Shown here piece by piece: positions 23,080 through 62,940 of a stretch of DNA of 64,000 bases (positions within the stretch are counted from its first letter, which is position 1; every line of letters starts with the position of its first letter). Made by a program: the position numbers and the translations under genes. The DNA lies in the NCBI GenBank assembly GCA_045656505.1, contig JAZORI010000058.1:38173-102172 (forward strand), read 5' to 3'. This DNA comes from Alistipes sp. (GTDB lineage: Bacteria > Bacteroidota > Bacteroidia > Bacteroidales > Rikenellaceae). The notes below the pieces were generated by a model. The model did no database searches. It saw only the letters and a list, made by a program, of their open reading frames with translations, and was not told the DNA's origin.

Positions 23080-23796
23080 ATGAAAAACCTGCACATTATA
23101 ACGCCGGTAAAGGACTCTATCGATTCTACTATTCAGACTATTCGTGCGTTGCTCTCTTCGCAGATAGATGTACCATATGTATATACGATATACAATGACT
23201 TTAGTAGTGAGGAGAGTACAGCACTGCTTGATAAGTACTCAAAGGAGCTCGGCTTTGAACTTGTCAACCTCTCTGATATTACTGACCACCCATCTCCAAA
23301 CTATCTGCTGGTTCTGCAGATGGCTCAAAAGCGTGCTATTGAGCAAAATGCTTCGCTGCTCATTGTCGAGAGTGATGTGGTTGTCGATAGCTCAACAGTG
23401 CAATCACTTGTTGATGGTGCGGCGCAGCGCGAGGATTGCGGAATTGCCGCTGCAGTGACAGTCGATGAGCAGGGTGATATAAACTATCCGTATAACTACG
23501 CCAAAGGTCGCGAGGGTGAGGTGTTCCAGGTGGATAAGCACTGCAGTTTCTGCTGCTCGCTGTTGACCAATAGACTGCTCAACTCCTACGACTTCTGCAA
23601 CCTTGACTCAGATAAGCATTGGTTTGATGTCCATATCTCGCACATCTCGCAGGATCTTGGGCTGAATAACTACCTCTTCTGCAATCTGCCCGTTATCCAC
23701 CGCCCACATGGCTCACGCCCGTGGAAACATCTGAAATATACACATCCGATAAAGTACTATATTAACAAGTTCTTTAAGCGCGTTGACAAGATATAA
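23080..23796 (+). CDS. Glycosyltransferase, GT-A fold (GT2-like)
   Basis: IITPVKD, IYNDFS, IVESD (DxD-like), WFDVHI. Confidence 0.75.
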   Translation: MKNLHIITPVKDSIDSTIQTIRALLSSQIDVPYVYTIYNDFSSEESTALLDKYSKELGFELVNLSDITDHPSPNYLLVLQMAQKRAIEQNASLLIVESDVVVDSSTVQSLVDGAAQREDCGIAAAVTVDEQGDINYPYNYAKGREGEVFQVDKHCSFCCSLLTNRLLNSYDFCNLDSDKHWFDVHISHISQDLGLNNYLFCNLPVIHRPHGSRPWKHLKYTHPIKYYINKFFKRVDKI

Positions 23797-23799
23797 TTT

Positions 23800-23912
23800 G
23801 TCTAACAAGGCTCTTTTGGCATCTGCCTTGTTCGTAAAATGCTCACATACGTTTAGTATGCTCCGCTTTTACGAACTGCGAGCAGCTTCAAAATAGCTCT
23901 TGTTATACAAAT
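23800..23912 (+). repeat. Family A long palindromic repeat, copy 1
   Basis: Arms AACAAG.../...CTTGTT; inner stem GTTCGTAAAA/TTTTACGAAC; apical CATAC-GTTTA-GTATG. Confidence 0.85.
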
Positions 23913-23929
23913 TCTTACACGTAGCATCC

Positions 23930-24042: not shown

Positions 24043-24141
24043 TATTGTATGGTGCTTTTGGCTATTAGCCTTTAGCTCTTGGCCTTTAAGAGGAATTGTG
24101 TTTAGTCCGCCACAGGCGGACAAAGCTAATAGCCAATAGCA

Positions 24142-24177
24142 AAAAAAGTCCGTCTAATTGCTTAGACGGACTTTTTT
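24142..24177. terminator. Terminator of the GTCCGYCTAA family
   Basis: AAAAAAGTCCGTCTAA-ttgc-TTAGACGGACTTTTTT. Confidence 0.8.
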
Positions 24178-29221: not shown

Positions 29222-29395
29222 AGTGTTATTTATTGGTTGGTTTGTTTGCTATGTATTGTGGAAACTTTCCTACAAAAATATGTAAAAAACGTCATTAAAG
29301 CAAATATTCGAGCAATTAATTTTACGGAGTGCGTCTAATGAGGTTATTATGACACATCTTTTGGTCTTTGGTTTTGTCCGCCAATAGCTAATAGC

Positions 29396-29433
29396 AAAAA
29401 AAGTCCGCCCAACAAAAACTTGTTAGGCGGACT
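29396..29433 (-). terminator. Terminator of the GTCCGYCTAAC family (imperfect)
   Basis: AAAAAAAGTCCGCCCAAC-aaaaactt-GTTAGGCGGACT, 22 nt past the kbaZ stop. Confidence 0.7.
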
Positions 29434-32081: not shown

Positions 32082-32510
32082 ATGAAAAAGATTTGGATTG
32101 TAACTCTGTTGGTGCTCCTCGCAGTAGGCGTTGGAGCCTTCTACTTCCGTTTCTACTTCGTCTTTGGCGAGGGTGTGAAGAGTGGCGAACTTAACTACGT
32201 AGTCAAGAAGGGTATTATCTTCAAGACCTATGAGGGTAAGCTTATTCAGTCGGGCATACGCTCGAAGGCAGCAGGGTCTATTCAGTCCTATGAGTTTGAG
32301 TTCTCGGTTGAGAATCAGCGCATTGCCGAGCGTCTGATGCTTGAGGGCGGAAAGGTTGTCGAGTTGCGCTATAAGGAGTACTTCGGCGCTCTGCCTTGGC
32401 GAGGATTTACTCGTTTTATTGTCGATAGCATTATCACTCACGATGCTCCTGCACTCCCTGAAGGCTCTCTTCTCCCTGAGACAGGCGAAAGACTACAGTT
32501 GGTAGAGTAG
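32082..32510 (+). CDS. Hypothetical membrane-anchored protein
   Basis: N-terminal TM helix; KKGIIFKTYEG; 1 nt after the upstream stop. Confidence 0.7.
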   Translation: MKKIWIVTLLVLLAVGVGAFYFRFYFVFGEGVKSGELNYVVKKGIIFKTYEGKLIQSGIRSKAAGSIQSYEFEFSVENQRIAERLMLEGGKVVELRYKEYFGALPWRGFTRFIVDSIITHDAPALPEGSLLPETGERLQLVE

Positions 32511-32542
32511 AGGCCAATTGCCAACAGCTAATAGCCAAAAGC

Positions 32543-32577
32543 AAACCAAGTCCGACTAAACTAGTCGGACTTGGTTT
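32543..32577. terminator. Bidirectional terminator of the GTCCG family
   Basis: AAACCAAGTCCGACTA-aac-TAGTCGGACTTGGTTT between convergent genes. Confidence 0.8.
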
Positions 32578-36816: not shown

Positions 36817-37224
36817 ATGGAAAAATACGAATCAAAACAGGGTCAAATATTTAAGTCGGCGGCGCAGATATATCCGCTTATATCTAACTTCTCGTTGCTC
36901 ACTCCAGCTGTATCTGATAAGGTGGAGGAGTGGTATGCAACCGAGGATACTTGCTCATTCAAGGTCAAGGGCTTTACCGTTAAACTCAGAATGGTGGATA
37001 AGCTCTTTGGTAAGCATGTCAAGATTACCGGCGATGATGGCGGTGTACCTATCGACTTTACCTTCTGGATTCAGCTCCATGAGGTGACGCCTACCGATAC
37101 CCGTATCCGTATGGTGCTCCACTGCGAACTCAATATGATGATGCGCATGATGGTCGGCGGCAAGATTCAGAAGGGGTTGGATAAGGCTGTGGAGGGGTTT
37201 GTGCAGGCGTTCAACCGCATCTAA
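36817..37224 (+). CDS. SRPBCC/CoxG-like small protein
   Basis: Start moved to ATG 36817, downstream of TACCTTTG at 36790-36797; C-terminal amphipathic helix typical of START-like folds. Confidence 0.6.
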   Translation: MEKYESKQGQIFKSAAQIYPLISNFSLLTPAVSDKVEEWYATEDTCSFKVKGFTVKLRMVDKLFGKHVKITGDDGGVPIDFTFWIQLHEVTPTDTRIRMVLHCELNMMMRMMVGGKIQKGLDKAVEGFVQAFNRI

Positions 37225-37231
37225 ATTTGCA

Positions 37232-37356
37232 TTTGTCGTGAAAAGGCAGCATTAGCTGCACATCCCTAAAAGCCCGACAATGGCTGTACGTTTTAGTACT
37301 ATCCATCGTCGGGCTTTTTACGCGATGCGCACCTACTACTACCTTTTGACGACAAA
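37232..37356 (+). repeat. Family B long palindromic repeat, copy 1
   Basis: Terminal IR TTTGTCGT/ACGACAAA; inner stem AAAAGCCCGAC.ATGG/CCAT.GTCGGGCTTTT; apical GTAC-GTTTTA-GTAC. Confidence 0.85.
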
Positions 37357-37360
37357 TGGG

Positions 37361-37484
37361 TTTTATCGTGATAGTGGCGCATTTGCACCATATCCTTCAA
37401 ATTCCCGAATGGGACGTACGTTAAGTACTACCCATCCGAGAATTTTTCACGATATAGCGCAACTACACCACTTTGACGATAAAA
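37361..37484 (+). repeat. Family B long palindromic repeat, copy 2
   Basis: Terminal IR TTTTATCGT/ACGATAAAA; apical GTAC-GTTAA-GTAC; tandem with copy 1. Confidence 0.85.
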
Positions 37485-37543
37485 CAGTGCAGGGATTTAT
37501 CAGTGTACAAACCCGGGAAAACCTTTTGCGTAGCAATAAATAT

Positions 37544-37580
37544 ACATCCGCGCAGCGGATACCTCTATAAGGCTAATACC
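37544..37580 (+). repeat. Module C mini-hairpin repeat
   Basis: ACATCCGCGCAGCGGATACCTCTATAAGGCTAATACC; 34/37 identical to 51651-51687. Confidence 0.85.
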
Positions 37581-37837
37581 ATGCGAGGAGGAAGGGTCGG
37601 CGCAGCCGAGCCAATAGCCAACGGCTAATCGCTAGCAGTGAAGCTCTGCTCCGCCGAGCTGACGGCAAATATCTGTCGCATAAGGGTTAATTTTCAAATT
37701 TTCTTAAAAAAAACGGGCGAAAGTTTTACCTTTTGCAAAAATAAGTGTATATTTGTGGCCGATTTCGCTCTGATTGAGAGCGAGATAGGTTTTTAAGATA
37801 AGGTTTAAGTATAATTAATAAACAAAAATTTACAGCT

Positions 37838-49455: not shown

Positions 49456-51480
49456 ATGGTAAGTTTGAACACATTGAGAACCAAATTCGGCGTACTGCTT
49501 TCAGTAGTTATCGCAGGCGCGCTTTTGGCGTTTATCTTCTCTCTGAAGACAGAGATGGGATTTTCTGGAAACGACCCTAAGGTCGGTGCAATTGATGGTA
49601 AGGATATTCACTACACAGAGTTCCTTGCTGCTTATGATGATGTAAAGTCTCAGATGGGTGAGCTCACTACAGATGAGCAGGCTCAGCAGGCTTTGGCAAA
49701 CACTTGGCAGATTCTGCTCTCTGACCATGTATTCACTCCAGGTTTTGAGGAGTTGGGTCTTGCTGTAGGTGAGGCAGAGCACAAGGCACTTATTCGTGGT
49801 GAGCGCGCAAGCAATGTTATGACAAGTCTGTTTGGTAATCCTCAGACAGGTGAGTATAACATCGAGGCTCTTGCTGCTTTCCTTGCAGAGGTTGAGACTA
49901 ACCCACAGGCTCAGAAGGCTTGGGCTTTCTTCAGCAAGCAGGCAGATCTCGATCGCGCTATGATGAAGTATCAGGCTCTTGTTCAGAAGGGTGCTTATGC
50001 AAACACTCTTGAGGTTGAGCGTGGCGTAAAGAGCGCAAACAATACCTACAATGGTCGCTATGTTGTTTGCCGTTACAACACTGTTGCTGATTCACTCTTC
50101 ACTGTTTCTGATAGCGAGATTAAGGCTTACTACAACGCACACAAGGCTCAGTATGAGCGCGTTCCTTCTCGTACAATCTCTTATGTTGAGTTCGAGGTTG
50201 AGCCAACAGAGGCTGATAAGGCTGCTGTTGAGGCTGAGGCAAAGGCTGCTGCTGAGCAGTTTGCTACAGTTAAGGATTTCAAGGCTTACACTCGTGAGAA
50301 CCGTCATGCATCAGTTGCTCAGACCTATATCACTGCAGCTTCTATGACTGCAGAGGAGAGCGAGGCTCTTGTAAAGGGTAAGATGTATGGTCCAGCACTC
50401 GTTGCAGATGAGTGGCGTGCAGCTCGCGTTGCAGAGGTTAGAAACGTTCCTGAGAAGTACACTCTCAGCCACATCGTTCTTAACTACACTGATGATAAGC
50501 TCGCCGATAGCCTTGTAACTGTTGCTAAGAAGGGCGACTTCGCTGCTCTTGCTTCACAGTATTCACTTGCTACAGATACAGCTGCTGAGGGCGGTAAGAT
50601 TGGTGAGGTTACTTATGGCTCACTCGCTCCTGAGTTCGCTGACGCTCTGCTCGGTAAGAAGAAGGGTGATGTTGTTAAGGTGACTATGGGTAATGTTATC
50701 CAGGTTCTTAAGGTTGACGCTGTAAGCGCTATCCAGAAGCACTACAAGCTCGCTACACTCTCATACCCACTCGTTGCATCACAGCTCACTCAGCGCGATG
50801 TTCACAACGCTGCAAGCCTCTTCGCTGTTACTGCAGCTAAGGATGGTTTCGAGAGCGCTACAACTGCACAGGCACAGTCTGCACGCACAGCTACTATCGA
50901 GAAGGCTGCTCGTTCAGTACGCGGTATCGATGTAAACTCTCTCGAGGTTGTGTTCTGGGCTAATAAGGCTAAGGTTGGTGATGTTTCTGAGCTTATCAAG
51001 CTTGATAACAACCACTATGTAGTAGCTACCCTCACTGGTATCAATGACAATGAGTATCGTACTGTAAATGAGGTTGCTTCTCAGATTAAGAGCACTCTTC
51101 TCCGTGATAAGAAGTTCGAGCACATCGCAGCTAAGATGGTTGGTGCTACTATCGAGGAGGTTGCTACAGCTGCAGCTGCTGAGGTTAAGACCTTTGAGAA
51201 TGTTAAGTACGATGCATACTATATTCCAGGTGTTGGTGTAGAGCCACGCGTTCTTGGTGCTATCTCTTCTCTTGAGCAGGGTGCTCTCTCAGCTCCGGTT
51301 AAGGGTGCAAGCGGCGTATTTGTTCTCGTTACTGACGGCGTAACCGTAGCTGCTGAGGCTCAGACCGTAGAGGCAGAGAAGGTTAAGCAGCAGGCATCTG
51401 CAGAGCAGTCTGCAACTCGCGCATTCTATGCTGTTCAGGAGGCTGCGGATGTAGAGGATAATACTGTTGGCTACTTCTAA
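49456..51480 (+). CDS. PpiD/SurA-N-domain periplasmic chaperone
   Basis: N-terminal TM anchor, SurA-N-like helical region, rotamase-like GDFAALASQYS...GGKIG; start moved to ATG 49456. Confidence 0.82.
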   Translation: MVSLNTLRTKFGVLLSVVIAGALLAFIFSLKTEMGFSGNDPKVGAIDGKDIHYTEFLAAYDDVKSQMGELTTDEQAQQALANTWQILLSDHVFTPGFEELGLAVGEAEHKALIRGERASNVMTSLFGNPQTGEYNIEALAAFLAEVETNPQAQKAWAFFSKQADLDRAMMKYQALVQKGAYANTLEVERGVKSANNTYNGRYVVCRYNTVADSLFTVSDSEIKAYYNAHKAQYERVPSRTISYVEFEVEPTEADKAAVEAEAKAAAEQFATVKDFKAYTRENRHASVAQTYITAASMTAEESEALVKGKMYGPALVADEWRAARVAEVRNVPEKYTLSHIVLNYTDDKLADSLVTVAKKGDFAALASQYSLATDTAAEGGKIGEVTYGSLAPEFADALLGKKKGDVVKVTMGNVIQVLKVDAVSAIQKHYKLATLSYPLVASQLTQRDVHNAASLFAVTAAKDGFESATTAQAQSARTATIEKAARSVRGIDVNSLEVVFWANKAKVGDVSELIKLDNNHYVVATLTGINDNEYRTVNEVASQIKSTLLRDKKFEHIAAKMVGATIEEVATAAAAEVKTFENVKYDAYYIPGVGVEPRVLGAISSLEQGALSAPVKGASGVFVLVTDGVTVAAEAQTVEAEKVKQQASAEQSATRAFYAVQEAADVEDNTVGYF

Positions 51481-51607
51481 TTTTGACGTGATAGTGGGGC
51501 ATCTACCTCCGCTAACACATATAAACAACAAAGGGCAGTACGCACAAGTACAGCCCTTTGTTGTTTTATGTGCCGAGCGGAGTATCTGCCCCACTCTGAC
51601 GCCAAAA
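51481..51607 (+). repeat. Family B long palindromic repeat, copy 3
   Basis: Starts at the base after the ppiD stop; TTTTGACGT...ACGCCAAAA; apical GTAC-GCACAA-GTAC. Confidence 0.85.
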
Positions 51608-51650
51608 TGGTACATAGATGTATCGAAGTATAGATGGTTAAAATAATCCA

Positions 51651-51705
51651 ACATCCGCGTAGCGGATACCTCAATAAGGCTAATAGCAAATAGCCAACAG
51701 CCAAT
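51651..51705 (+). repeat. Module C plus heptamer run
   Basis: ATCCGC-GTA-GCGGAT, then GGCTAAT AGCAAAT AGCCAAC AGCCAAT. Confidence 0.85.
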
Positions 51706-51708
51706 ATC

Positions 51709-51742
51709 AAAAAAATAGCGAGAATATTCTCGCTATTTTTTT
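51709..51742. terminator. Bidirectional terminator (tkt/ppiD)
   Basis: Perfect palindrome AAAAAAATAGCGAGAAT|ATTCTCGCTATTTTTTT. Confidence 0.8.
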
Positions 51743-61667: not shown

Positions 61668-62765
61668 ATGCTGACACTGAAAGATATATACCGCAAGTCA
61701 CACGATGGCCAGATGCTCACCCTTGATGAGGCGTGGTTGCTCTATAGCACCGCCCCTCTCGAGGAACTTGCAGCTCAGGCCGATCTGCTGCGACAGAAGA
61801 TGGTGCCGGATCCGAGCGTTGTGACTTGGCAGATAGACCGCAATGTCAATACTACAAATGTCTGCACATCGGGCTGCCTGTTCTGTAACTTCCATTGCAA
61901 GCCGCACCAGACAGACAAGCACTTTATAACATCAATAGACGAGTACTGCCAAAAGATAGACGCAATGGTTGCCCTGGGTGGCAATCAGCTACTTCTGCAG
62001 GGTGGAATGCACCCAAAACTCGGAATTGAGTTCTACGAGGAGCTGTTCCGTGAGCTGAAACGTCGCTATCCTACACTGCGCCTCAATGCTTTGGGAGCAC
62101 CTGAGGTTGCACATATTGCTAAGATTAGCGGAATCTCAACGCAGACAACCTTAGAACGCCTTGTGGCTGCGGGCCTTAACTCTCTGCCGGGGGCTGGTGC
62201 AGAGATTTTGGTGCCGAGGGTGCGCAAAATTATCTCGCCCGCAAAGCCGAGCGTGGAGCAGTGGCTTGAAGTTATGCATCAGGCTCATATGATGAATATC
62301 CCAACCACAGCAACCATGATGTATGGCCATGTTGAGACCCCGCAAGAGCGCGTTGAACACCTTATCCGCCTTCGTGACCTGCAGGCCGATGTGCCCGCAG
62401 GAAATTATGGATTTATCGCCTTCATCCCATGGATATTCTGCTCGCACGGCACTCAACTCGAAAAGAGAGGTGTCATTTCGCACTTTTCACCCCTTGAGTA
62501 TATCCGTATTATCGCCACCGCACGACTTGTGCTCAATAATATCCGTAACATCCAAGCCTCATGGCTCACCGTCGGTAAGCAGACCGCTCAACTCGCCCTC
62601 CATAGTGGCGCCAACGACTTCGGCTCCATCATGATTGAGGAGAATGTCGTAAGCTCCGCCGGCGCCTCAAACCGATTCGATAAAGAGGGTATTCAGCAGG
62701 CAATCCGCGAGGCGGGGTTTATTCCACGTCTCCGCGACCAACTCTATAATATTTTATCGTTATAG
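61668..62765 (+). CDS. mqnC: Cyclic dehypoxanthine futalosine synthase (futalosine menaquinone pathway), radical SAM
   Basis: RNVNTTNVCTSGCLFC, LLQGG, SLPGAGAEIL, GANDFGS, EENVV. Confidence 0.8.
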   Translation: MLTLKDIYRKSHDGQMLTLDEAWLLYSTAPLEELAAQADLLRQKMVPDPSVVTWQIDRNVNTTNVCTSGCLFCNFHCKPHQTDKHFITSIDEYCQKIDAMVALGGNQLLLQGGMHPKLGIEFYEELFRELKRRYPTLRLNALGAPEVAHIAKISGISTQTTLERLVAAGLNSLPGAGAEILVPRVRKIISPAKPSVEQWLEVMHQAHMMNIPTTATMMYGHVETPQERVEHLIRLRDLQADVPAGNYGFIAFIPWIFCSHGTQLEKRGVISHFSPLEYIRIIATARLVLNNIRNIQASWLTVGKQTAQLALHSGANDFGSIMIEENVVSSAGASNRFDKEGIQQAIREAGFIPRLRDQLYNILSL

Positions 62766-62877
62766 TGGCGCATTTGCGGCACATCCCTTAAAAACCAACG
62801 GCGGCTGTACGTTTTGAGTACTATCCGCCGTTGCTTTTTTGCACGATGCACCATCTCTAACACGTTTTGACAACAAA
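62752..62877 (+). repeat. Family B long palindromic repeat, copy 4 (overlaps mqnC stop)
   Basis: TTTTATCGTTATAGTGGCGCATTTGC matches copy 2; apical GTAC-GTTTTGA-GTAC; ends TTTGACAACAAA. Confidence 0.85.
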
Positions 62878-62940
62878 TTGGTGCAAGATATAGGGTAGTG
62901 CTGTACTGCGTAGCCGTGAAACCAGTGCAATTGGTGCACC

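Follow-up and report, generated by a model that had tools for sequence, protein, structure and literature searches.

We describe here a high-copy family of imperfect palindromes of about 128 nt, family B, which is restricted to gut bacteria of the Rikenellaceae, and which we take, with reasonable rather than full confidence, to be a non-autonomous, structure-defined repeat of the kind represented by ERIC, Correia, and REP elements; its movement or exchange probably takes place in the form of a single-strand hairpin. The family accounts for ~1% of an Alistipes-like draft genome of 2.07 Mb, with ~183 loci in ~131 arrays of 1–3 head-to-tail units (unit length ~128 nt), a number far above chance; mixed orientation is seen in 5/131 arrays. 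Within the genus it is present in 28/49 genomes, the copy number ranging from 0 to at least 42 per genome, and within the family Rikenellaceae in 8/31 genera, whereas 0/32 other families of the order have it. Near-complete genomes holding 12 to 25 or more copies are available within the genus. Many contig ends break within family B units.

Hairpin architecture, conserved mismatches, and strand asymmetry

The window, i.e., the entire 64,000-nt stretch of Alistipes DNA analyzed here, was described in an earlier note as carrying four copies of the element; all four are present where they had been placed, each folding as a single long hairpin (–38 to –73 kcal/mol; z of –3.9 to –12.6 relative to dinucleotide shuffles) whose inner stems, as also claimed, differ between the copies yet remain paired in all window units (Table 1). 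When the window was scanned with a covariance model built from family B (R1), exactly these four units were recovered, the + strand matches to units 1, 3, and 4 scoring 86–126 bits and unit 2 being listed solely as a – strand match (67 bits), together with one weak match on the repeat named 'family A', possibly a distant branch of the family B superfamily. Unit 1 shows the organization most clearly in its feet (left, TTTGTCGT-G-AAAAGG; right, CCTTTT-G-ACGACAAAT), a CAT (37250–37252) opposite a CTA (37336–37338), an inner stem with A- and T-tracts (37268–37278/37308–37319), and the apex GTAC GTTTTA GTAC (37286–37299). Unit 2 follows head-to-tail with a period of 129 nt, and since a plain terminator-like hairpin lies farther downstream, both units are situated between a stop codon and that terminator. 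The short stub that precedes unit 1 is probably a remnant of an older left foot, and comparable stubs (TTTNNNGTGA..) separate stop codon and element at further loci. The small hairpin of the 3'-UTR mosaic downstream of unit 2 belongs to family D11.

Table 1. Coordinates of family B units and neighboring features in the window
Feature	Position	Strand	Remarks
'Family A' unit weakly matched by the family B model	23795..23915	+	28.8 bits, E 7.5e-5
TAA stop of 135-aa ORF (36817–37224)	37222..37224	+	left limit of array
7-nt stub ATTTGCA between TAA and unit 1	37225..37231	+	ATTTTGCA in other strains
Unit 1	37232..37357	+	R1 125.9 bits; G.G 37240/37348
Unit 2, GTTTTATCGTGATAG subfamily	37360..37485	+	G.G 37370/37475 and one T.C mismatch
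Right-flank module AGTGCAGGGATTTATCAGTGTACAAAC, GTGCA..N..GTGCAAA type	37486..37512	+	trails last unit in many arrays
Small hairpin ATCCGCGCAGCGGAT of shared 3'-UTR mosaic	37546..37560	+	second occurrence 51653–51667
Ordinary terminator-like hairpin, 3' of mosaic	37762..37786	+	
TAA stop, SurA-like PPIase gene	51478..51480	+	unit 3 begins at following base
Unit 3, CCGCTAAC...GCCGAGCGG subfamily	51481..51608	+	G.G 51490/51598; R1 103.6 bits
Canonical bidirectional terminator: A-run, stem TAGCGAGAAT/ATTCTCGCTA, T-run	51709..51742	.	3' of unit 3, between convergent genes
Unit 4	62751..62879	+	T.G at 62761/62869 instead of G.G; R1 86.1 bits

The G.G mismatch claimed for three of the four window copies is indeed found in units 1–3, with unit 4 showing T.G. 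Across the 119 near-full-length copies used for genome-wide structure statistics, this mismatch is one of several conserved unpaired positions (G.G in 110/119, T.C in 105/119, and C.A in 86/119), with an invariant A-T (117/119) lying amid the C.A and T.C mismatches and a further T.C mismatch kept in one subfamily. Both GTAC blocks are near-invariant (102–119 of 119 per position). The apex GTAC-G(N3-5)A-GTAC, said to be found always, holds for all four window copies but not genome-wide, the apical loop being closed by G in 83% and by A in 81% of the 119 copies. The paired positions covary: 33/51 pairs are altered on both sides, and 217 double-sided covariation cells were counted vs 79 ± 7.5 in shuffles and 29–59 in slid controls. 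Mismatch and covariation persist over the 119 copies and in other genera, copies from which keep the G.G, C.A, and T.C mismatches; the view of a structure-encoded non-autonomous repeat is upheld. In the consensus, the inner stem goes with an A-tract (positions 43–46) and a T-run of 5–6 nt (87–92), and the feet, by reading, conform to (R)TTTNNNGTGA(A/T)A ... T(T/C)TGACNNNAAA(Y). A local hairpin in the left arm, giving a three-way junction, was rejected as weakly supported (53–76% paired).

The two strands are not equivalent. The antisense-strand hairpin is the stronger one in 116/119 copies (–64.5 vs –50.4 kcal/mol, a difference of ~14 kcal/mol) and in 42/44 copies in other genomes, and DNA parameters favor the same strand in 117/119 copies; it presents G.U, G.A, and G.G where the sense strand has C.A, C.U, and C.C. 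The scale of the family, its polarity and abutment to genes, the C.A and T.C mismatches, the antisense fold, and the strain-level replacement had all been missed in the earlier note.

Placement at gene ends and turnover between strains

In at least 83/91 arrays the left foot is directed at a gene of like orientation, on its 3' side; among the eight exceptions, gene-calling errors account for at least two, which are both located on contig C28, e.g., at rplI. Where both orientations are listed for a locus, R1 scores the gene-sense orientation ~25–55 bits higher than the reverse; an inverton reading was rejected, given the constancy of the polarity relative to genes in the assemblies. In 50/75 cases the foot begins 0–2 nt past the stop codon, with TAA, TAG, and TGA being used at background proportions, and one copy lies flush with the 3' end of a tRNA-Arg; on its left a unit may be bordered by a stop codon of any kind, by a tRNA end, by a stub, or by a further unit. 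No known target rule accounts for abutment to all three stops and a tRNA end. A 'TAA-TTT' target motif is ruled out by the use of TAG and TGA stops and of the tRNA end, and at genes lacking the element stop+TTT is not depleted, nor is it common. General compaction of 3'-UTRs is likewise ruled out as the source of the abutment, plain terminators starting at a median of 21 nt past the stop with just 2.8% within 2 nt. The TAG of the mqnC/cofH-like ORF (62763–62765) falls within the left foot of unit 4, and family B units lengthen some genes, mqnC among them, or provide their final codons and stop. The arrays lie between convergent genes in 49/83 cases and are followed by a co-directional gene in 34/83; the units are biased to the G-rich strand, which is probably the leading strand.

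Comparison of orthologous sites reveals turnover. The site behind the SurA-like PPIase gene (unit 3) is filled in 14/14 close relatives, with differing subfamilies, and carries plain terminators instead of family B in distant Alistipes; in strains with an identical PPIase protein, the whole unit together with its module is swapped for another member. Behind the 135-aa protein upstream of unit 1, other family members were found in eight metagenome contigs, with three different unit 1 alleles behind identical upstream proteins; each swapped allele is present in 2–4 independent assemblies. The site orthologous to that of unit 4 is filled, shrunk to a mini-hairpin, or without an element in relatives, and gains flush with stop codons are seen in L160 and L166 where sister species carry a terminator. 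Between species and strains, sites are newly acquired, shrink to foot stubs or mini-hairpins, and are refilled by other members. Exact-protein look-ups found replacements but no empty site and no clean filled/empty pair within a species, so that either transposition or ectopic gene conversion may underlie the changes. No target-site duplication beyond chance was detected, the distribution of direct-repeat lengths of 73 solo copies equaling that of shuffled flank partners.

The strictness with which units are placed and oriented toward their gene, the stem covariation, and the housekeeping genes served (units are found behind rplI, frr, and infC) would befit an element that is primarily a functional 3'-UTR RNA of the upstream gene, viz., an elaborate terminator, mRNA stabilizer, or processing signal, with selection acting on the RNA structure and spread being a by-product. 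Two features resemble an intrinsic terminator: the consensus inner stem is placed between an A-tract and a 5–6-nt T-tract, and the units occupy a site where relatives have a plain terminator, the element-bearing clade lacking one at the PPIase site, unlike distant relatives. However, we regard this account as unlikely. The sense RNA folds worse, with C.A, C.U, and C.C instead of the expected G.U; ordinary terminators remain 3' of the units; and neither the units nor their inner hairpins come up in a simple terminator scan. Moreover, the copy number varies from 0 to at least 42 inside one genus, one and the same site may hold very different sequences, mini-versions, or nothing, and 2–3-unit arrays have no obvious RNA rationale. 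From intrinsic terminators family B differs in adding an outer stem of 35–40 nt per side and in being repeated and mobile.

An RNA from the antisense strand, either a small RNA gene or a terminator/insulator against convergent and antisense transcription, appears improbable. Its better fold by 14 kcal/mol, with G.U, G.A, and G.G replacing C.A, C.U, and C.C, is the usual mark of the structured strand, and the position of 49/83 arrays between convergent genes also speaks for it; but in the 34/83 arrays with a co-directional downstream gene no antisense promoter is evident, unit and convergent gene are usually separated by a bidirectional terminator, and stable G.T, G.A, and G.G mismatches favor the same strand equally as single-stranded DNA (117/119).

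Relation to known repeats and mobilizing enzymes

In Rfam searches of the window, tRNA alone reaches the gathering score and family B has no match, and E-value scans of two loci returned spurious, far-sub-threshold matches, mostly to miRNA-hairpin models. BLAST against a plasmid collection gave no family B match either, and literature searches yielded no account of comparable repeats from Alistipes or other Bacteroidota. The want of an Rfam match and of anything in the plasmid collection bears out the contention that the element is not assignable to any named family.

Candidate mobilizing enzymes show no association with the element. The Y1 transposase (RAYT, PF01797) is absent in the window's genome and in 13 element-bearing relatives, some near-complete, and was found solely in an element-free genome (G004). 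The IS110 DEDD transposase (PF01548) is absent from all 10 element-rich genomes and occurs in G011 and G031 only; reverse transcriptase (RVT_1, PF00078) is absent in the element-rich G000, G012, G013, G010, G008, G036, and G037 and does occur in several element-free genomes; and an integron integrase (TIGR02249) scores above cut-off in 0/20 genomes, which have generic tyrosine recombinases only. Most of the genomes compared are metagenome bins, and enzyme absence is weaker evidence in these because insertion sequences are often missing there; the near-complete G166, G011, and G031 agree with it. A search of the draft genome, whose bin may lack insertion sequences, for an autonomous parent yielded no longer element with family B ends and no pair of ends enclosing an ORF; the orphan right ends examined mostly derive from a second, ~85-nt element that is nested within the right arm, or are right-foot stubs.

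This incompleteness of bins, along with the many contigs that end inside units, the inverted-repeat nature of the feet, and the high copy number that varies between species, speaks for a classical terminal-inverted-repeat MITE that moves by cut-and-paste through a DDE transposase whose gene lies elsewhere or has dropped out of the bins. We nevertheless give this reading little credence: target-site duplication is not above chance, the genome has no longer element bearing family B ends, and between subfamilies the terminal repeats covary rather than presenting the fixed sequence to which a transposase should bind; nor does a duplex TIR mechanism predict strict polarity, strand-specific mismatches, or stop-codon abutment. 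PATEs require TnpA (Y1), separate subterminal hairpins at both ends, and a fixed target tetranucleotide. Family B is not such an IS200/IS605-derived PATE: it is without Y1, a single hairpin unites both its ends, and its left flank is not a fixed tetranucleotide.

The REP/BIME/REPIN repeats are extragenic palindromes in 3' flanks that form mosaics with other small modules, as does family B, and recognition of REPs is assumed to involve the single-stranded DNA hairpin with its conserved mismatch. The analogy with REP/RAYT implied in the earlier note is not supported as a statement of membership, the Y1 enzyme being missing from the genome and the 13 element-bearing relatives, and the GTAG/CGTC tag being missing from the element. 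REPs are 20–40 nt long, carry a GTAG or CGTC tag, and occur mostly as inverted dimers (PMC3733652), in contrast to the ~128-nt, head-to-tail units of family B with their TTTNNNGTGA/TGACNNNAAA feet.

Integron attC sites offer a further parallel, in which structure prevails over sequence, conservation is concentrated at the foot, the site begins at the stop codon or overlaps it, the recombining strand, which lies opposite the upstream ORF, is marked by unpaired bases, and units act like exchangeable cassettes; this resemblance concerns a possible way of working, not attC identity. Family B differs in being without an integron integrase, an attI or platform, the R-box consensus, and ORFs in its cassettes, and in having >100 sites dispersed behind housekeeping genes. 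That it serves a known class of enzyme (IntI or Y1 HUH) as an attC-like or REP/RAYT-like site of single-strand recombination is highly improbable: the imperfect hairpin with a variable interior and conservation chiefly at the foot, the marking of one strand by conserved unpaired bases, the better-folding strand opposite the upstream ORF as in attC bottom strands, and the cassette-like replacement directly 3' of ORFs are outweighed by the absence of an above-cut-off integron integrase in all 20 genomes and of Y1 in all 13 element-bearing ones, by a foot unlike both RYYYAAC/GTTRRRY and the GTAG/CGTC tags, and by units scattered behind housekeeping genes with no cassette platform, such that either membership is largely refuted.

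The ncRNA arrays of UG27 reverse transcriptases from Bacteroidota prophages, known also in Alistipes, consist of 135–167-nt hairpin units adjoining the RT and two accessory genes, with the motifs AUCN7UANAG and UUYA (bioRxiv 10.64898/2026.09.22.753630). They share with family B a conserved architecture in diverse sequence, short internal-loop motifs, and the gain and loss of units, but family B units are dispersed at gene ends in a genome without RT, and by reading neither UG27 motif is seen in them.

The descriptive class that fits best is that of ERIC and Correia, with dispersed intergenic copies devoid of coding capacity. No dedicated transposase is known for ERIC/IRU (127 nt) or Neisseria Correia/NEMIS (PMC2229807; PMC3184786; PMC10969869). 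Like these, family B consists of imperfect palindromes in the 100–160-nt range that form long hairpins and are present intergenically in tens to hundreds of copies. ERIC and Correia elements are co-transcribed, and since the family B unit sits between a stop codon and an ordinary terminator, the same is predicted for it. Family B differs in that no sequence relation is seen and no TA duplication is present, in its strict polarity relative to the upstream gene with a start 0–2 nt past the stop, and in its head-to-tail arrays, conserved mismatches, strand-asymmetric fold, and Bacteroidota (Rikenellaceae) host. The suggestion that the element marks an undescribed system is not substantiated: no gene was found to go with it, and most of the features are covered by a selfish repeat of the ERIC/Correia type.

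Proposed propagation of family B and its implications

For such an ERIC/Correia/REP-like repeat, we propose that the folded single strand would be what is recognized and propagated, i.e., a DNA hairpin whose foot unites both ends, rather than a sequence-specific terminal inverted repeat. The conserved mismatches would mark the strand and thereby fix the polarity, and units could be inserted or swapped at the foot by a host or other structure-specific enzyme, with hairpin-templated (quasipalindrome) correction possibly aiding the complementarity of the arms. A secondary role as a 3'-UTR hairpin is probable, be it as an exonuclease barrier, an RNase target, or a partial terminator; the RNA role and the strand that matters are inferred.

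A bolder version, which we hold to be doubtful, is that of a structure-specific recombination system which would place ORF-less hairpin cassettes at the precise 3' boundary of genes (stop codon or tRNA end) and exchange them there. Here the folded single strand would be the substrate, the G.G, C.A, and T.C mismatches would mark the strand and fix the polarity, and the foot would be the crossover site. If true, this would amount to an attC-like working dispersed over >100 housekeeping gene ends with no integron integrase, no HUH or IS110 enzyme, and no reverse transcriptase, and would imply a new enzyme or a hijacked host function of the Xer or repair type.

ERIC, Correia, BOX, and CGTC-REPs have long been known, and to our knowledge the mobilizing activity and placement rules of most of them are not understood. 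On the practical side, family B breaks metagenome assemblies, and automated screens could mistake it for structured RNAs or invertible elements. Its host lineage comprises gut Alistipes and other Rikenellaceae of herbivores, in which nothing comparable has been described. With its fixed polarity, 0–2-nt placement rule, few unpaired bases amid covarying stems, strand asymmetry, bias to the G-rich strand, and natural 'cassette' variation among strains, family B provides several handles that make the movement of such repeats, and the way in which their strands are read, testable questions.

Copy number, distribution and fold of family B

The four window copies of family B, an imperfect palindromic hairpin repeat of about 128 nt, were recovered at exactly the sites claimed in the earlier note, and each folds as a single long hairpin (z-scores -3.9 to -12.6). 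The proposed apex GTAC-G(N3-5)A-GTAC holds for all four units, the G.G mismatch described for three copies is indeed seen in three of the four, and no Rfam family matches the window units. The observation is thereby confirmed and considerably extended. Iterated nhmmer searches of the host draft genome (2.07 Mb, 47% G+C, 71 contigs) recovered ~183 loci, among which 119 are near full length and many lie at contig ends; together they make up ~131 arrays (83 single, 44 double, 4 triple). The relatives of the window are 'Alistipes sp.' and Rikenellaceae bins from the guts of ruminants and other herbivores. A covariance model of the family (R1) matched 28 of 49 genomes belonging to this genus, with counts per genome from 0 to at least 42: some 11 small genomes (1.7-2.4 Mb) carry at least 42 copies each, a complete 3.8-Mb genome carries 12 and a complete 3.3-Mb genome none. 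With the same model, 32 other families of the order gave zero matches; matches occur in 8 of the 31 genera of the family, and at least 24 copies lie in a single 1.5-Mb genome from a different genus. Family B is a genus/family-restricted, structure-constrained palindromic repeat of high copy number.

Column statistics and mirror-pair counts over the 119 near-full-length copies define the plan of the unit. Its feet, the paired outer ends, read (R)TTT-NNN-GT-G-A(A/T)A ... T(T/C)T-G-AC-NNN-AAA(Y), with covarying NNN triplets (GTC/GAC, ATC/GAT, GTT/AAC, GCC..., GGC/GCC, AGC/GCT) and a G opposite G in 110 copies; the GATAG/CTCTG subfamily has an additional T.C mismatch (42 copies). A second conserved motif sets CAT (positions 24-26) opposite CTA (108-110), giving C.A in 86, A-T in 117 and T.C in 105 of the 119. 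The inner stem varies in sequence, with an A-tract (43-46) on one side of it and a T-run (87-92) on the other, and the two GTAC blocks flanking the apical loop are near-invariant, with the loop-closing G present in 83% of copies and the A in 81%. In a 31-sequence alignment, both sides change at 33 of 51 pairs, with 217 both-side-change cells vs 79 +/- 7.5 after shuffling and 29-59 when the partners are slid. The unpaired bases are conserved as well, and copies from other genera with G+C-richer genomes retain CGTGA...TGACG, the apex plan and flush junctions. About 100 nt past the gene, alleles at relatives' loci L283 and L280-L282 are otherwise identical and differ in the apical loop alone (GTAC GCTTTA GTAC vs GTAC GTCTT GTAC), which suggests fast change at the apex.

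The fold is strand-asymmetric. In gene sense, the non-Watson-Crick positions are mostly C.A (702), C.T (502) and C.C (287), with just 276 G.T; on the opposite strand the first three turn into G.T, G.A and G.G. The antisense hairpin is stronger in 116/119 copies with RNA parameters (-64.5 vs -50.4 kcal/mol), in 117/119 with DNA parameters and in 42/44 copies of other genomes. The expected mutational bias is C-to-T on the exposed coding or lagging-template strand, and it would produce the opposite of this mismatch pattern. The sense strand is also the locally G-rich one in 72/82 arrays vs 622/1028 genes (Fisher p = 2e-7): family B may be biased towards genes on the leading strand, where high expression is common, or copies whose strong hairpin falls on the lagging-strand template may get lost.

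Polarity and abutment at gene ends

Family B abuts gene ends with strict polarity and without target-site duplication, none being found at its copies. By a crude ORF call, 83 of 91 arrays with assignable context have their left foot where a co-oriented upstream gene ends; of the eight others, at least the two on contig C28 are errors of that call (e.g. in the rpsF-rpsR-rplI operon). At loci from many genomes listing both orientations, R1 scores the gene sense ~25-55 bits over the reverse; polarity is therefore written in the sequence. Among 75 first or solo full-length copies near a co-oriented gene end, the stop codon precedes the TTT of the foot by 0 nt in 21, 1 nt in 22, 2 nt in seven and 3-19 nt in 13, and lies inside the left arm in 12, in five of which the mismatch G forms the TGA. 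Left-foot stubs of 10-20 nt (TTTNNNGTGA..) occupy five or more of the gaps of 11-19 nt, and several of the 1-2-nt gaps too. Since TAA, TAG and TGA precede the feet in about background proportions, a TAA-TTT sequence motif is ruled out as the source of the abutment. Plain terminator hairpins of element-free genes start at a median of 21 nt past the stop, with 2.8% within 2 nt, so the abutment is specific to family B. Covariation also links the final stop-codon base to the right end (TAG...CAAAC, TAA...CAAAT), and the stem therefore often takes in that base. A tRNA-Arg gene also has a copy flush with its 3' end: at C61:1-316 two tandem units follow this gene without spacer, and the contig then ends. 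Candidate causes of the 0-2-nt abutment are microhomology to R-TTT, the renewed use of old foot stubs, and some further targeting step.

Several other modules share these 3' regions (Table). In several units the right arm harbours, just before TCTGACG, a second small element of ~70-85 nt (..TTGGCTCGCCTAAGGCG..CTGCATTCGGCTTAATCGCAGCGT), which separates the left part of the unit from an orphan right foot. Behind their last unit, arrays often carry GTGCA-N10-14-GAGTGCAAAC (window 37486-37512 and many right flanks in the genome), and a second common right-flank type is ..TCGTCACTTTAATTAAC... Shared 3'-UTR modules comprise, in order, the hairpin ATCCGCGYAGCGGAT, ACCTCWATAAGGCTAATAGC and 9-mer runs GCYAATRGC, which precede an A-tract terminator; many plain terminators begin 15-24 nt past the stop, perhaps due to such a module. 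A sister family combines the family-B core (CCGCTAAC...stem-GTAC loop-stem...GCCGAGCG) with outer arms of another sequence (..TGATTTTAAGCGG / CCTCGCTTAAAATCA..); it occurs once as a triple tandem array, and at locus L163 the TGA of the element is the stop codon of the upstream gene. Family A, another window repeat, has the same 130-nt period as family B, and one of its units (window 23795-23915) gives a weak family-B covariance match (28.8 bits); the two may be distant branches of one superfamily.

Family-B units and associated modules in the window and on other contigs (C) of its draft genome
Feature	Location	Position	Context
Unit 1	window	37232-37357	behind TAA of 135-aa ORF, 7-nt stub between
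Unit 2	window	37360-37485	head-to-tail after unit 1; period 129 nt
Unit 3	window	51481-51608	first base directly after TAA of SurA-like PPIase gene
Unit 4	window	62751-62879	left foot holds TAG of mqnC/cofH-like gene
Nested ~70-85-nt element	outside window	C52:8133-8216, C17:40-121, C67:40-121, C34:19076-19143	
Shared 3'-UTR modules	window	37546-37581, 51653-51688, 24124-24157, 29379-29412, 32526-32559	
Sister family	outside window	C20:25134-25233, C21:18829-19193, C5:10010-10101, C43:82773-82867; also locus L163	

Turnover among species and strains

Family B turns over unit by unit. The PPIase site is filled in 14/14 close relatives (77-88% protein identity) by units differing in subfamily and feet, and in distant Alistipes (43-51% identity) it holds a plain terminator. 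In 23-kb syntenic loci around mfd, most members of the closest clade (Mfd identity of 81% or more) have both window sites filled; outside this clade the region holds a partial match in L169 and a full copy in L235 and no more. At the orthologue of window ORF 32082-32510, additional units directly adjoin the stop codon in two species; in the window and in three sister species a terminator occupies this position. The mqnC site in relatives carries a full unit, a 34-nt mini-hairpin of both feet, or no element. Across the window (62740-62765) and loci L001-L014 and L275-L285, the C-terminus of the mqnC/cofH-like protein, Leu-Leu-stop in the ..YNLL form and otherwise ..YNILSL before the stop, is encoded by the left foot or its decayed stub; the repeat has therefore contributed coding sequence. 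At L162 and L163 the palindrome extends into the last codons, to which the right arm is complementary.

Strains show the same exchange. Eight metagenome contigs encoding a 135-aa protein identical to that of the window have three different family members as unit 1 and a full, internally deleted or other member as unit 2, with feet and flanks constant. Two contigs with an identical 674-aa PPIase carry another subfamily together with another right-flank module, the latter exchanged along with the unit, and are identical again from the ATCCGCGTAGCGGAT hairpin on. Recurrence of every strain allele in 2-4 independent assemblies speaks against chimeric assembly, and in related species alleles are stable over 10-24 contigs; no within-species empty allele was found among the contigs of strains and related species compared. 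Elsewhere, a strain encoding an identical 142-aa protein (window 32510-32530 vs L247:978-1075) has an extra ~70-nt segment containing the ATCCGCTCTGCGGAT module, with the 8-nt direct repeat AGGCCAAT at both bounds; either an insertion that duplicated 8 bp or a deletion between the two repeats could account for the difference.

Known families and a proposed mode of propagation

Searches for candidate enzymes gave no Y1_Tnp (RAYT, IS200/IS605) in the genome of the window or 13 carriers, three of them near-complete (one element-free genome alone has it), no IS110 transposase in any element-rich genome, no reverse transcriptase in seven element-rich genomes (several element-free genomes have one), no integron integrase over the cut-off in any of 20 genomes, and no longer element with family-B ends in the draft genome. 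Membership in the attC, REP or IS608 families thus fails in each case on the defining enzyme. The REP/RAYT likeness drawn in the earlier note falls as a matter of membership and stands as a reasonable picture of the element's possible mode of action: at attC sites, REPs and IS608 ends mismatches mark the strand, and we infer the same role for those of family B. A 2026 preprint (bioRxiv 10.64898/2026.09.22.753630) reports that in Bacteroidota prophages UG27 reverse transcriptases adjoin arrays of 135-167-nt hairpin ncRNAs; these have motifs other than those of family B, and their reverse transcriptase is missing from this genome. We found no account of such repeats in Alistipes or Bacteroidota in the literature.

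We propose that recognition and propagation act on a folded single strand, in all likelihood of DNA, in which the foot would bring both unit ends together and the conserved mismatches would mark the strand. Hairpin-templated (quasipalindrome) correction may help to maintain arm complementarity and would stretch the pairing into the stop codon, and hairpin-stimulated deletion would account for the stubs and mini-hairpins. The units sit between the stop codon and an ordinary terminator, a position where they are predicted to be co-transcribed, and where they may act on the upstream RNA by stabilising it, processing it or terminating part of it. The weaker fold of the sense RNA, and an occurrence that is patchy and replaceable, argue against an essential RNA function. 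Family B is best filed as a newly found member of the long palindromic intergenic repeats, to which it adds unusual, testable properties.
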